Below are positions 3,478 through 61,250 of a DNA stretch of 64,000 nucleotides, piece after piece; position 1 is the stretch's first letter; each line of letters begins with the position of its first letter. Origin of the DNA: an uncultured Clostridia bacterium (GTDB taxonomy: Bacteria > Bacillota > Clostridia > TANB77 > CAG-508); contig CALXFC010000001.1 of NCBI GenBank assembly GCA_944387485.1, positions 4,179 to 68,178 on the forward strand, read 5' to 3'. The notes under the pieces are model-generated. The model made no database searches. It was not told the DNA's origin and worked only from the letters and a program-made list of their open reading frames with translations. The position numbers and the translations under genes are program-made.

Positions 3478-3508
3478 GCTGTTTTTGGGGACGGAGCAAA
3501 AAAACAGT
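3478..3508. repeat. copy 1 of the intergenic palindromic element CTGTTTTT-GGGGACGGAG-AAAAACAG
   Basis: GCTGTTTTTGGGGACGGAGCAAAAAAACAG immediately after the recG stop; near-identical copies at 16623, 25047, 58459, 61208. Confidence 0.7.
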
Positions 3509-3527
3509 AAAGACAACAGGGATTTGG

Positions 3528-3621
3528 AGCAAGTTTTTAAATTCAAGCTTCGCTTACCAGCAAATTAACTACCCTTAATTTCCCTACGTTAATTTGCTTA
3601 ATTTAAAAACTTGCTTTTTAT
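3528..3621 (+). terminator. long branched hairpin followed by a T-tract (terminator or structured RNA)
   Basis: AGCAAGTTTTTAAATT (3528-3543) pairs with AATTTAAAAACTTGCT (3600-3615) then TTTTTAT. Inner stem GCAAATTAAC (3559-3568) pairs with GTTAATTTGC (3588-3597). Confidence 0.5.
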
Positions 3622-3708
3622 ATTTTCTTGGGAAGCAACATACTTATTGACTTTTTATATGGAAAATAGTATATTTATATAGAAGAAATAAAAAAGGATG
3701 TAGATAAA

Positions 3709-3900
3709 ATGTTAAAAGCAATTATTACTTTAATAGCAGTTATTATGGTACTTGTAGGAGTAATTTTAATATATGATGCAAGAATTATTACAAAGAAATT
3801 TTTTGGATTTGGTGACCAAAATGAAGGTTCTAGTGGATTAAAAATATTAGGCTTTTTAATATCAATTATTGGTGGACTTATTTTGTACTTTAATTTTTAA
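3709..3900 (+). CDS. small hypothetical membrane protein (2 TM)
   Basis: 63-aa hydrophobic ORF. Upstream TTGACT-N17-TATATT promoter-like (3640-3670) and an AAAGGATG RBS. Confidence 0.4.
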   Translation: MLKAIITLIAVIMVLVGVILIYDARIITKKFFGFGDQNEGSSGLKILGFLISIIGGLILYFNF

Positions 3901-3958
3901 AAAAGCACTTGACAAAACATGGTTTGTTGTGCTAATATTATTATTGTTAGTTAAATAT

Positions 3959-4042
3959 GCGGATGTGGCGGAACTGGTAGACGCGCTGGTCTTAGGAACC
4001 AGTGCCAATGGCGTGGGGGTTCAAGTCCCTTCATCCGCACCA
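3959..4042 (+). tRNA. tRNA-Leu (anticodon TAG), with encoded CCA
   Basis: GCGGATGTGGCGGAACTGGTAGACGCGCTGGTCTTAGGAACCAGTGCCAATGGCGTGGGGGTTCAAGTCCCTTCATCCGCACCA: 7-bp acceptor stem, long variable arm, anticodon loop CT-TAG-GA, T-arm GGTTCAAGTCC. Confidence 0.85.
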
Positions 4043-4235
4043 TTAAATTCTATATAATTAAAACATTAAATCATTTTAAGATTCTTATAATTATTTTCTA
4101 TATTTAAACAATTTGTTTCTTAATATTTCCGTATAAAAAAGTTTCATTAAATTATTATTTGAAGAAATAAATTTCTAAAGGCATATTAACTTATTTATTA
4201 AATATGTTATGTTGGTAAAGAAAGAAGAATGTCAA

Positions 4236-4660
4236 ATGAAACAATTAGAAAAAGAAGAAAATTATAATAAGAAGAATTTCGAAGAGATAAAACATATGCA
4301 AGAAAATAAATGAAAGTTTTAAATTATAAGAACTGGAGACATTTTGATAGGTTAATACAAAAAGCAAAAGTGGCTTGTAAAAACTCCGGTATAACTGATA
4401 AAACAAAATGGTTGAAATAGGATCCGGAGCAAAAAGAAAACAGAAAGATTATAAATTAACAAGGTATGCAGTCTACTGACAAAAGCTAAAAAAAGATAAT
4501 ATACAAAATAAAAAAGGTGCAAATGAGACTCATTACAATATCGGAAAAATTGTTAGAAAAGCTATAAAAGAAGCAGGGCGAAACTATGCCAGAAAATTTA
4601 CCTATGCCTAAAAAGAGTTTAAAGCAATTACAAAAAGAAAATAAGAAAAATTTAAAATAA
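4236..4660 (+). pseudogene. decayed dinD-like (DNA-damage-inducible protein D family) gene remnant, multiple stops, frameshifts and deletions
   Basis: Fragments in different frames: MKVLNYKNWRHFDRLIQKAKVACKNSGITDKTKWL (like E. coli DinD ...RDWRNFQKVLARATQACEASNQ...) and GETMPENLPMPKKSLKQLQKENKKNLK* (like the DinD C-terminus GGTMPEELPTPQVSIKQLE...). Total length well below an intact ~275-aa gene. Confidence 0.5.
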
Positions 4661-58129: not shown

Positions 58130-58196
58130 AACAAATGGGGACAGTCCTTTTTTGTTCCACTTACAAATAAATGTAAATTATAAAGGAGGTTAAAAA

Positions 58197-58415
58197 ATGT
58201 TTGGAAAGGAAAAAATAACAAAAACATTAAACGTAGAAGGAATGAGCTGTATGCACTGTGTAAAGAAAGTAGAAACAGCTCTAAAAGAAGTAAAAGGAGT
58301 TAAATCTGTAAAAGTAGATTTAGAAAATAAAACAGCAGAAATAACTTTAAAAGAAGATGTAGACGAAGAAGTATTAAAAAAAGCAGTAGAAGATGCTGGA
58401 TATGAAGTAAAATAA
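58197..58415 (+). CDS. copZ: copper chaperone CopZ (HMA domain)
   Basis: MSCMHCVKKVETAL; 72 aa. Confidence 0.8.
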   Translation: MFGKEKITKTLNVEGMSCMHCVKKVETALKEVKGVKSVKVDLENKTAEITLKEDVDEEVLKKAVEDAGYEVK

Positions 58416-58458
58416 AAAAATAGTAATATATTTTTTACAGTGGCAATTAGTTTTGCTA

Positions 58459-58487
58459 CTGTTTTTTTGCTCCGTCCCGAAAAACAG
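58459..58487. repeat. copy 4 (inverted) of the CTGTTTTT-GGGGACGGAG-AAAAACAG element
   Basis: CTGTTTTTTTGCTCCGTCCCGAAAAACAG after copZ. Confidence 0.7.
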
Positions 58488-58603
58488 GAGGAACAGGAAG
58501 AAAAAGAAAATTTAAATATAAGAAGAATTTACAGGAAAATTACAAAAGTGGGTTGACTAAAAATAGAAAAATTACATATAATTATTGGGTAGGAGGAAGT
58601 AAT

Positions 58604-61184
58604 ATGTTAAAACTAGAAAATATAACAAAAGACTATAAATCAGGTGACAGTGTAGTACATGCGTTAAAAGGAGTAAGTATAGAATTTAGAGAAAATGAAT
58701 TTGTATCAATATTAGGACAAAGTGGTTGTGGTAAGACAACTTTATTAAATATAATAGGAGGTCTTGATAGATATACAAGTGGAAATTTAATAATAAATGG
58801 TAAATCAACAAAAAAGTTTAAAGATAAAGATTGGGATGCATATAGAAATTACTCAGTAGGTTTTGTATTCCAGAATTATAATTTAATATCACATCAAACA
58901 ATACTTTCAAATGTAGAACTTGCACTTACATTATCAGGAGTAAGTAAAAAAGAAAGAAGAGCAAGAGCAATAGAGGCTCTAAAAAAGGTAGGATTAGAAG
59001 AACAAATACATAAAAAACCAAATCAATTATCAGGTGGACAGATGCAAAGAGTTGCAATTGCAAGAGCAATTGTAAATAATCCAGATATAATATTAGCAGA
59101 TGAACCAACACGGAGCATTAGATAGTAAAACAAGTAAGCAAGTAATGGATATATTAAAAGAAATTGCAAAAGATAGATTAGTAATAATGGTAACACACAA
59201 TAGTGAACTTGCAGAAGAATATTCTACAAGAATAATAAGAATATTAGATGGTGTAATTACTGATGATAGTAATCCATATAAAAGTGAAGAAGAAGAAAAA
59301 AATACTTCAAAAGAACAAAGAAGAACATCAATAAAATTTTTAACAGCACTAAATTTAAGTTTAAATAACTTAATGACTAAAAAAGGAAGAACAATTTTAA
59401 CAGCATTTGCAGGAAGTATAGGAATAATAGGAATAGCTTTAATACTTGCAATATCAACAGGAATACAAAATTATATAGATAGAGTAGAAGAAGATACTTT
59501 GTCATCATATCCGATAACAATAGAAGAAGCAACAATAGATACATCAAGTATGTTAGAAACAATGATGCAAAGTTCTGATAATGAAGAAAATACAGATGAT
59601 GGAAAAATCCATTCACAAAACATAATGACAGAAATGCTATCAACAATTTCAAATAAAGTAGAAAGTAATAATTTAACAGAATTTAAAGAATATTTAGAAA
59701 GTGATGATAATGAAATAAAAGATTATACTAATTCAATACAATATGAATATAATCTAAACTTAAATCTATATAAAGAAAACACAGATGATGGAATAGTAAA
59801 AGTAAATCCTAGTACTGTTATGGAAAAACTAGGAAAGGGAAGAATGGCAGAGACACAAAGTAATGGAATAAGTTTTATGAACACAGATGTGTGGACAGAA
59901 ATGCTAGATAATGAAGAATTATTACACTCACAATATGACTTAGTTGCAGGAGCGTGGCCTCAAAATTACAATGAAGTTGTTTTAATAGTAGATGAAAATA
60001 ATAGAATAAATGATTATGTATTATATTCATTAGGAATAAAAGACCAAGATGAATTAGAAGAAACAATGGATAAATTAACAAGTGGAGAAACAGTAGAAGA
60101 GCCAGAAAATACAACATATACTTATGATGAATTATTAAATTTATCATTTAAATTATTACTAAATAGTGATTATTACCAAAAAGAAAATGGCCTATGGATA
60201 AATAAAGAAGAAGACCAAGAATATATGAAACAAAAAATAAAAGATGCAGAAAGTATAAAAGTTGTAGGAATAATAAAACAAAATGAAAATAGTTCAGCAA
60301 CAGGAATGGCAGGAGGAATAGGATATTTAAAAGATTTAAAAGAATATGTTATAAATAAAACAAATGAATCAGAAATAGTAAAAGAACAAAAAGAAAATCC
60401 AGATGTAAATGTATTTACAGGATTAGAATTTCCAAAAGAAGGGGAAGAAACACAAATATTTAATATGCAAAACTTAAGTGCTGAACAACAAATGGCAATA
60501 TCTCAAATGTCACCAGAACAAATAGCAGATATATTGGAAACATATAGAGAAAACCAAGAAGCAACTTATGAAGATAACTTAGCAACTTTAGGTTCAGTAG
60601 ATTTAAGTAAGCCATCATCAATATCAATATATCCAAAATCATTTGATGATAAAGAGAAAATAGCAAATGCAATAGAAAGCTATAACCAAAAACAACAAGA
60701 TGAAGGAAAAGAAGAAAATGTAATAACATATACAGACATAGTAGGAACTATGATGAAATCTGTAACAAATATAATAGATGCAGTAAGTTATGCTCTAATT
60801 GGATTTGTAAGTATATCACTTATAGTCTCATCAATAATGATAGGAATAATAACATATATATCAGTATTAGAAAGAACAAAAGAAATAGGAATCTTAAGGG
60901 CAATAGGAGCATCTAAGAAAGATATATCAAAAGTATTTAATGCAGAAACATTTATAGTAGGACTAATTGCAGGATTAATCGGAATAGGAATAACTGTACT
61001 TCTAACAATACCAATAAATAGTTTAATATATAACTTATCAGGAGTAGCAATAAAAGCAACGTTACAACCAGTTGCAGGGCTAATATTAGTATTAATTAGT
61101 ATGTTCTTAACTATAATTGCAGGACTAATACCAGCAAAAATGGCAAGCAAAAAAGATCCGGTAGAAGCATTAAGAACAGAATAA
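58604..61184 (+). CDS. MacB-like ABC transporter with fused ATPase and FtsX-type permease, frame broken at in-frame CGG (59111-59113) in the D-loop
   Basis: Walker A GQSGCGKTT; signature LSGGQMQRVAIARA; Walker B ILADEPT-R(CGG)-SIR*. Skipping C59111 gives ADEPTGALDSKTSKQVMDIL...VTHN... then a large extracytoplasmic domain and FtsX TM helices (ORF 59100..61184). Confidence 0.8.
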
Positions 61185-61207
61185 AATAATGTTTAATTTT
61201 TTCTTTG

Positions 61208-61250
61208 TGGGACGGATAAAAAACAGTTAAAAGTTGTTTTTTTCCGTCCT
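61208..61250. repeat. copy 5 (permuted or composite) of the GGGACGG palindromic element
   Basis: TGGGACGGATAAAAAACAGTTAAAAGTTGTTTTTTTCCGTCCT: outer GGGACGGA/TCCGTCC arms, inner AAAAAACAG/TTGTTTTTT. Confidence 0.6.

Follow-up and report, generated by a model that had tools for sequence, protein, structure and literature searches.

We analysed a family of short palindromic repeats in a 64,000-nucleotide stretch of DNA from an uncultured Clostridia bacterium (contig CALXFC010000001.1; the whole 64-kb stretch is referred to hereafter as the window), in which an earlier annotation (the original prediction) had listed ~30-nt palindromes at five gene ends. Our results make it highly probable that these repeats form a repetitive extragenic palindromic (REP)-type family, and that its cognate enzyme is a transposase of the REP-associated tyrosine transposase (RAYT) family, i.e., an HUH/Y1 protein encoded at a single locus and inherited vertically within a clade of low-GC gut Clostridia. 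The repeat is a dispersed extragenic hairpin that also occurs as inverted doublets, is not flanked by target duplications, brackets a single-locus Y1 gene and appears to co-vary with it, features that together make up the signature of a REP/RAYT system.

A search of the window with the consensus pattern, allowing up to three mismatches, retrieved four full units of the form CTGTTTTT-GGGGACGGAG[G/C]AA-AAAAACAG, three of them (3479, 16624 and 25048) without a mismatch to the consensus and one (58459) with a single mismatch. The consensus pattern had no match in 100 dinucleotide shuffles of the window, establishing that the repeated palindromes are real. A hidden Markov model (HMM) built from 96 distinct units recovered these four (E ~1e-12) and no other significant match. 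Two units lie on the plus strand and two on the minus strand, such that both orientations do occur, and the G+C-rich core GGGACGGAG, which had been singled out as conspicuous, is present five times in the window against 0.78 expected. The units, together with two further sequences that had been counted with them, are as follows:

3477..3509, plus strand: unit 1, core 3479-3507 (CTGTTTTTGGGGACGGAGCAAAAAAACAG); HMM E=1.6e-12, DNA hairpin of -5.2 kcal/mol.
16622..16654, minus strand: unit 2, core 16624-16652; consensus and HMM match.
25046..25078, plus strand: unit 3, core 25048-25076, with outer pair C:G (cCTG...CAGg); consensus and HMM match.
58457..58489, minus strand: unit 4, core 58459-58487, with G to C at the first loop base; consensus and HMM match.
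61209..61249, no strand assigned: degenerate tail-to-tail doublet, plus half 61209-61226 and minus half 61234-61249.
4424..4447, plus strand: claimed half-copy GGATCCGGAGCAAAAAGAAAACAG; HMM E=10 over 11 nt, no support as a member.

The fifth copy, which had been described as a permuted unit beside the ABC transporter, is indeed related to the family, but it is a degenerate doublet rather than a permuted unit: it reads GGGACGGAtAAAAAACAG, a 7-nt spacer and tTGTTTTTTTCCGTCC, both head arms have decayed, and only its halves score with the HMM, weakly (E about 1-16). The half-copy reported at 4424-4450 could not be distinguished from chance.

To define the repeat, we gathered all matches in the window and in the loci fetched from related genomes, which yielded 128-132 distinct units (128 of them in the related loci). 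The 29-nt core was near-invariant across this set, and its immediate flanks were strongly patterned (5' W-W-A-[A/C]; 3' [T/G]-T-W-W), with A in ~75% of the units at position -2 and T in ~85% at +2, A or C at -1, and T or G at +1. These flanking bases co-vary: the -1/+1 pair is C:G in 35 units, A:T in 31 and G:C in 13, amounting to Watson-Crick pairs in 80 of 132 units versus 46 upon shuffling (z=6.5), and the -2/+2 pair is A:T in 92 units and T:A in 15 (z=7.4). Since the covarying outer bases belong to the element, its length is 33 nt and not 29. No covariation was seen, for the units as a class, at pairs -3/+3 and outward. Yet 13 units have at least five additional complementary flank bases (1.8 expected), which could, speculatively, reflect growth of the palindrome by template switching.

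The functional unit thus folds as a 33-nt hairpin in which a 10-bp stem (A-M-CTGTTTTT / AAAAACAG-K-T) is topped by a 13-nt loop, GGGGACGGAG[G/C]AA. In place of the 9-bp A/T stem initially proposed, the stem comprises eight invariant pairs and the two covarying outer ones; it is A/T-rich with a CTG/CAG clamp, and encloses a conserved G-rich loop whose bottom strand includes CGTC (CCTCCGTCCCC). When folded as DNA or RNA, the consensus and each copy in the window gave exactly this 10-bp-stem hairpin (-5 to -8 kcal/mol), and a hairpin was predicted for every copy, with z-scores of -2.3 to -4.8. Scanning the whole window against Rfam 15 at gathering score returned a tRNA-Leu as the sole match, and the units match no curated RNA family.

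The family is widespread among relatives of the window's species. Allowing two free positions, the exact 29-mer occurred, among the matches listed, in more than 84 stretches from ~20 Clostridia metagenome-assembled genomes (MAGs) or bins of a one-genome-per-species collection, and all hosts among these matches were uncultured low-GC Clostridia (Clostridium sp. CAG:389, UMGS1663, UMGS1612 and the 'Lapin', 'BRZ', 'Hadza', 'Nepal' and MGBC bins). Four of these genomes hold at least 10-16 exact copies each. Copies are thus not confined to the window, in keeping with the original prediction. The window itself contains four units and one doublet in 64 kb, or about one per 13-16 kb, from which a copy number of the order of 100 per genome can be extrapolated. 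Twenty units that at first seemed intragenic reflected over-extension of crudely called open reading frames (ORFs), as in L007 (BRZ_NM bin19), where the unit is actually intergenic. A viral or plasmid origin is not supported, as the exact 29-mer had no match in a collection of viral contigs.

In two of the related loci, units spaced 865 nt apart led us to an enclosed ORF of 256-258 aa, whose product measures 244-265 aa across loci. This protein matches the Pfam family Y1_Tnp at 44-55 bits (cut-off 23), and among NCBIfam models it scores far higher with REP_Tyr_transpos (69-72 bits, cut-off 80) than with IS200 (20-26 bits, cut-off 55). Alignments of 34 and of 48 homologues showed both the HUH motif, NH(A/T/V/G)H, and the catalytic tyrosine motif, KYIHxNPVK, to be invariant. 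When the PDB was searched with a profile, E. coli TnpA_REP (4ER8) came first, at E=1e-5, with IS200-family enzymes at E about 0.4; a profile was needed here, as a single-sequence search missed TnpA_REP. Similarly, the best fold match of an AlphaFold model (mean predicted local distance difference test score, pLDDT, 86.8) was 4ER8 (E=8.7e-7), ahead of the IS608 and ISDra2 TnpA proteins. The enzyme would be a long form carrying a C-terminal helical domain, and it appears closest to the TIRYT type (TnpA_Y1 subclass 2.1, RAYT group 1). With 1833 clusters at E<=1e-5, the protein belongs to a large family. Of note, many of the homologue clusters (P0001-P0120) were seen solely on contigs of ~1-2 kb, consistent with metagenome assemblies breaking at the flanking units.

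We then asked how regularly the gene and the repeat occur together. A tblastn search of all loci found the Y1 gene in five different MAGs, always beside units, and in three loci (L026, L060 and L068) it lies between an upstream plus unit and a downstream minus unit. Most loci had been fetched by an exact match to the unit, a choice that biases estimates of conservation upwards, whereas loci anchored on the protein are free of this bias. We accordingly consider nine loci fetched via the protein alone (P0020, P0054, P0010, P0121, P0123, P0125, P0116, P0025 and P0118). All nine showed the same plus-to-minus bracket, with the plus unit 45-140 nt upstream of the gene and the minus unit 2-84 nt downstream. 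The repeat had been proposed as a possible target of a small mobile system, and the bracketing of a RAYT-like gene by the same units in related genomes bears this out.

The hairpins, moreover, differ with the enzyme. The type of unit found in the window (type A) accompanies six enzyme lineages that are 51-91% identical to one another. In the P0116 lineage the hairpin is CTGATTTT-GGGGTCGGAGACA-AAAATCAG, in which the stem has changed from T:A to A:T in compensatory fashion and the core from A to T; in the P0025 lineage it is CTTTT-AGGGACGGGGT-AAAA; and in the P0118 lineage it is ACTTTT-AGGGACG....-AAAAGT, in this case with two units upstream of the gene, two downstream, and an extra plus/minus doublet 1.8 kb away. 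Common to all lineages is the stem-loop junction TTT-[G/A]GGG[A/T]CG. At the level of sequence, then, divergent enzyme lineages carry matching variant hairpins, i.e., the repeat co-varies with the enzyme. The gene itself does not seem to travel: eight of the nine protein-anchored loci occupy one slot (DUF378, ABC-F ATPase, the gene, in some cases DUF975, then Tex), and since the enzymes in this shared slot are only 47-55% identical to each other, its conservation points to long vertical inheritance rather than to transposition of the gene.

The placement of the units relative to genes raises an alternative that we consider possible, if unlikely, namely that they are host-selected RNA or DNA signals (operon punctuation, 3'-end protection, mRNA stabilisation or terminator helpers), with an incidental or historical link to the transposase. 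The case for it lies chiefly in position and orientation. Among 67 ORF-end cases, a stop codon precedes the unit by 0-3 nt in 41, and once orthologous sites are collapsed, the head of the unit adjoins the stop (sense orientation) in 27 of 30 (p=8e-6), the main exception being the transposase gene itself. At gene starts there is no orientation bias (11 vs 8). Singletons abutting a stop are sense in 11 cases and antisense in one, while beyond 60 nt from the upstream stop antisense singletons predominate (6 vs 2). Furthermore, REPs of E. coli stabilise upstream mRNA (background cited in PMC6006769), and the units are fixed within the species, as detailed below.

The window offers examples of such placement. 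The head of unit 1 lies 2 nt past the recG stop (TAA, 3474-3476) in sense orientation, and both antisense units follow terminators. Unit 2, which is antisense to spoVG, sits directly 3' of the hairpin and T-run of the canonical spoVG terminator and points its head to the downstream pth gene; it and the terminator fold as two adjacent hairpins. Unit 3 is located 257 nt past a GT2 gene and 134 nt before rimP. As for unit 4, its first four nucleotides (CTGT) close the stem of the copZ terminator (58437-58462) and its T7 run doubles as the terminator's T-tract, so that repeat unit and terminator are physically fused. The doublet, which begins 24 nt past the FtsX-permease gene, constitutes a strong gene-end hairpin, predicted as DNA to have 15 bp (-12.9 kcal/mol, z=-4.8). 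The placement at gene ends that had been claimed for all copies hence amounts to direct contact with a stop codon for unit 1, and not for the other three units. The gene names given to these neighbours hold: Pfam identified RecG, GT2, RimP, CopA, the ABC ATPase, the FtsX permease and Pth, as well as a 72-aa HMA/CopZ ORF, and SpoVG was confirmed too.

Other observations speak against a purely host-encoded signal. A single unit is a weak hairpin (the -5 to -8 kcal/mol given above), and the suggested role as a terminator on its own fails on its A/T stem, its 13-nt loop and the absence of a T-run past the stem; indeed, terminator scans call no unit itself, and unit 4 merely lends its T-run to a neighbouring hairpin. 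In addition, a conserved loop that co-varies with the enzyme lineage would be expected under recognition by a protein, whereas a generic RNA stem would need no such loop, and the presence or absence of units differs at orthologous gene ends, which argues against an essential signal. A host role is nonetheless compatible with a REP/RAYT system as a secondary, exapted one. As to the orientation bias, in the sense orientation the mRNA contains a purine-rich, Shine-Dalgarno-like loop (GGGGACGGAGG), whereas the antisense orientation would place its CCUCC complement there. Selection against this anti-Shine-Dalgarno-like loop in operon transcripts, with the GGAGG side tolerated, is one plausible explanation. 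An insertion bias tied to the replicating strand is an unlikely cause, given that orientation depends on the distance to the stop; also, the genes of the window lie nearly all on one strand, yet its units are split evenly between the two.

We next compared unit sites within and between species. Conspecific metagenome contigs were recovered via look-ups of SpoVG, RimP and CopZ (L094, L106-L111 and L114-L119); BRZ_LF NODE_411 and ONAT22-1 SAMEA6814589 scaffold_756 are among the contigs of this species. Unit 2 is identical in L094, unit 3 is fixed in six contigs (two of which carry one single-nucleotide polymorphism, SNP, in the loop), unit 4 is identical in six, and the doublet is identical in four. 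Between species, the picture was different. No unit follows spoVG in nine contigs (L085-L093) that encode an identical SpoVG, and the site of unit 3 is empty in L112, which encodes an identical RimP; likewise, there is no unit after recG in L016, and none upstream of pth in L027. Conversely, the closest locus fetched, L007 (81-87% nucleotide identity to the window; none was identical), carries an intergenic unit at a place that in the window is occupied by a plain terminator. Some sites are common to several species. Intergenic alignments between species were too diverged for base-exact insertion points, such that presence or absence alone could be read. On this basis, unit sites turn over between related species, i.e., they are gained and lost. 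At orthologous sites the units diverge by 2.5% compared to 14.9% in flanking coding DNA, a difference that we dropped as evidence of conservation, as most of these loci had been fetched by an exact match to the unit.

These data also bear on a second and rather doubtful alternative, according to which the Y1 protein is fully domesticated, having ceased to move any DNA, and the units serve as fixed double-stranded binding sites of its C-terminal domain, e.g., in nucleoid structuring or regulation. Retention of the gene at one syntenic locus over deep divergence would fit this, as would the fixation of units within the species and the general resemblance of RAYTs to housekeeping genes (PMC5581495). 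The domain in question is a C-terminal extension of ~110 aa that is conserved in the homologue alignments; its last 72 residues, modelled alone, form five helices (pLDDT 92), the last of which superpose on the helix-turn-helix (HTH) domains of DeoR and LsrR (root-mean-square deviation 1.3-1.6 A over ~40 residues). This HTH assignment is, however, not significant: the winged-helix/HTH matches (also including S25) are weak (E about 4), and searches with Pfam (E up to 10), PDB profiles and Foldseek on the separate model gave no significant match. Moreover, the HUH histidines and the catalytic tyrosine are invariant in all 48 homologues, which would argue for retained catalysis, unit positions differ between related species through gain and loss, and covariation of the stem points to a folded single strand and not to a duplex operator.

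The arrangement of neighbouring units provided further evidence on how the family spreads. All close pairs (32 of 32) run plus then minus, with the A-rich tails inward and the CTGTTTTTGGGG heads outward, and are separated by spacers of 9-90 nt; 74 of the 128 units are singletons. No excess of direct repeats, i.e., of target-site duplications, was found flanking either single units or doublets. For this reason we judge it very improbable that the units are terminal inverted repeats of miniature inverted-repeat transposable elements mobilised by a DDE-type insertion sequence, even though the doublets resemble short elements bounded by inverted repeats; in addition, doublet interiors are unrelated to one another, more than half of the units stand alone, and the sole gene consistently bracketed by units encodes the Y1/HUH enzyme. 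That the units are DNA-uptake signal sequences, of the sort that in Neisseria and Haemophilus commonly form inverted pairs at the ends of genes, is extremely improbable: they do constitute an over-represented short motif with frequent inverted pairs near gene ends, but their density is far below that of known uptake sequences, which are found inside genes too, while the cognate transposase explains the family and no link to competence was seen.

With regard to the original description of the element as REP/BOX-like, the REP part stands (dispersed, extragenic, in both orientations and with inverted doublets), whereas the BOX part is a merely generic likeness; BOX elements are modular and are not known to have a cognate Y1 enzyme.

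Several doublets displayed features of their own. At L123 13410-13503 (and in L124-L126), a doublet after Tex has CTGAATTT instead of CTGTTTTT in both arms, a change that weakens the stem of the single unit, and a private mutation is likewise shared between the arms of a doublet in L020. The shared change in L123 suggests copying or correction between the arms of a doublet. In L103 (6764-6964), one plus unit and then two minus units lie downstream of the RAYT gene, a cluster that arose by an 86-nt tandem duplication including a unit and that is reminiscent of the multi-REP arrays of E. coli (bacterial interspersed mosaic elements, BIMEs). The same locus carries, just past Tex (9183-9260), a plus/minus doublet of a second, related unit type, TTTAGGGACGG[G/A]G.AAAAATGTATAT, of which a similar unit is found at L081 7339-7358. 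As the genome of L103 also has type-A units around its RAYT, two repeat families may coexist in one genome.

A number of points weigh against assigning the units to a REP/RAYT system. One SNP aside, the recovered conspecific contigs show no differences at the four units or the doublet, which are thus fixed, and no movement was seen. By tblastn the window contains no Y1 gene, as had been stated originally for a transposase, and P0010, P0121, P0123 and P0125, along with their cluster members, showed no overlap in sample or contig with the window's species. The upward bias that comes from fetching most loci by the unit itself likewise belongs here. Within the doublets, spacer sequences are shared by orthologous doublets only and are otherwise unrelated, and the doublets hence lack the appearance of copies made from a single master REPIN (a REP doublet forming a hairpin). 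The enzyme scores 69-72 bits with the NCBIfam model REP_Tyr_transpos, thereby missing its equivalog cut-off of 80, and the flank logo of the units lacks the GTAG/GTGG tag found at the foot of canonical REP hairpins. Lastly, of the five residues with which the E. coli enzyme contacts GTAG as listed by Quentin et al. (PMC6006769; W94, Q95, E100, H101 and R104), the profile alignment shows four to be exchanged (Q95 to R, E100 to S, H101 to E and R104 to K), and the fifth, W94, is replaced by F, i.e., still aromatic. These altered contacts fit the absence of GTAG in the units.

Considering both sides, we favour a REP/RAYT system, for which IS608 TnpA and E. coli TnpA_REP suggest the following course of events by analogy. 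The enzyme would recognise the folded single-stranded hairpin, with the TTT-[G/A]GGG[A/T]CG junction as the specificity determinant, and would cut and rejoin single-stranded DNA beside the hairpin at the replication fork. Units would thereby be copied, moved or lost during replication without generating target duplications, while the enzyme gene would itself stay in place. Once settled, units would be transcribed within 3' untranslated regions or operon spacers and come under host selection, which would account for the sense bias beside stop codons.

The window presented several further features besides the repeat family. A CRISPR array at 52947-55489 comprises ~38 copies of a 36-nt repeat (ATTATATCATATCAAAATAAAATAGGGAATTACAAC) with ~30-nt spacers at a 66-nt period, and the ORFs upstream of it (48147-51548, 51636-52535 and 52528-52848; 1133, 299 and 106 aa) would fit cas9, cas1 and cas2 by their size. 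The window is otherwise compact, but the ~1.4 kb at 3532-4978 lack any ORF reaching 80 aa; they contain the tRNA-Leu (3959-4042) and short ORFs; a terminator scan found no terminator-like site in 3300-5000. At 58553-59125, the ABC ATPase ORF is short (190 aa), its Pfam match runs to its C-terminus, and it overlaps the 694-aa FtsX-permease ORF (59100-61184) by 26 nt, as it also does in conspecific contigs; the pair may represent either a MacB-like gene that has been split or frameshifted, or two normal genes that overlap. Finally, a 43-nt tandem repeat at 43381-43499 (2.8 copies, 82% matches), with the palindrome TCTGCATATA...TATATGCAGA, overlaps the start of the ORF at 43491-44558.

Comparing the family with known systems, we noted several points in common with the REPtrons of E. 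coli and Pseudomonas: short extragenic palindromes in tens to hundreds of copies, frequent inverted doublets, a single Y1/HUH gene that has its own repeats on both flanks and is passed on vertically without changing its locus, no target duplications, and an enzyme whose best profile and fold match is TnpA_REP itself. Unlike in REPtrons, where the stem is G+C-rich and the loop small, the stem here is A/T-rich and the loop large and conserved; the enzyme is ~90 residues longer, with most GTAG-contact residues changed and a score below the equivalog cut-off; and the host belongs to a Clostridia clade of ~27% G+C. The family also resembles the REPINs described by Bertels and Rainey in 2011 (PMC3116915) in having inverted doublets able to fold into a long hairpin, some with the same private mutation in both arms (L123 13410/13475; L020). 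It departs from them in that the length and sequence of the spacer are not conserved between non-orthologous doublets and that most units are singletons, so that it is not evident that what replicates is the doublet, as would be the case in a typical REPIN. The CGTC-tagged REPs (Di Nocera et al. 2013, PMC3733652) share the CGTC and a stem of 8-10 bp with A/T pairs, yet in these the tag is unpaired at one end of the hairpin, loops measure 4-5 nt and no transposase is associated, whereas here the motif lies inside a 13-nt loop and a cognate Y1 gene exists.

The closest counterparts are the TIRtrons, long RAYT-like (TIRYT) genes flanked by inverted repeats that share GGGGWSAS, some of these repeats being self-complementary and present in moderate abundance (Di Nocera et al. 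2013, PMC3733652). The TIRYT type corresponds to TnpA_Y1 subclass 2.1 of Quentin et al. (2018, PMC6006769), who treat it as equivalent to RAYT group 1 of Bertels et al. (2017, PMC5581495), a group noted to occur in Clostridia. In line with the TIRYT type, the protein studied here is long and RAYT-like with a C-terminal helical extension, in this case of ~110 aa and with weak HTH/winged-helix matches, where TIRYTs have an HTH-like one (Bac_DnaA_C / HTH_23 / HTH_28). Its gene is bracketed by inverted repeats with a G-rich motif fitting GGGGWS(AS), and this repeat, besides flanking the gene, makes up a dispersed family of moderate abundance, often dimeric. The motif reads GGGGACGG here and GGGGTCGG in the L099 lineage, both of which fit 7 of 8 positions of GGGGWSAS and end in GG instead of AS, and the C and D variants read AGGGACGG and AGGGACG[C/T]. 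The family differs from TIRYTs in that its repeat folds clearly into a 33-nt hairpin whose stem covaries and whose loop holds the G-rich motif, whereas Quentin et al. (PMC6006769) found no REP-like structures beside subclass 2.1 genes. Firmicutes are not mentioned in PMC3733652 or PMC6006769, and neither describes a repeat family in them; the string 'Clostridi' is absent from the former, and the latter names Clostridia for subclass 1.1 (IS200) only.

A more far-reaching reading, which we put forward tentatively and regard as rather unlikely, is that this is the first subclass 2.1/group 1 (TIRYT) enzyme with true hairpin REPs, found in Clostridia, whose hairpins the host has co-opted as operon-internal 3' elements. 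The sense bias at stop codons is the sole feature that might exceed the ordinary; if this reading were true, orientation and placement would be set by selection at the level of translation or mRNA, or by stop-proximal targeting, and not by transposition alone.

The practical effects are modest: 33-nt repeats break metagenome assemblies (many RAYT contigs end at ~1 kb), the units can serve as species- and clade-specific markers, and annotating them would prevent their confusion with terminators or small RNAs. The hosts are abundant, uncultured gut Clostridia with small A+T-rich genomes. Taken together, these comparisons point to a known kind of system, REP/RAYT and TIRYT-like, in a clade for which we found no REP family in the literature, REP/RAYT systems having so far been characterised almost entirely in Proteobacteria with GTAG-tagged G+C-rich hairpins. 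RAYT group 1/subclass 2.1 is large and functionally unstudied, with no known substrate structure or reported REP-like partners, and the family described here supplies a testable candidate substrate for that class, built around the invariant TTT-GGGGACGG stem-loop junction that appears to co-vary with the enzyme.

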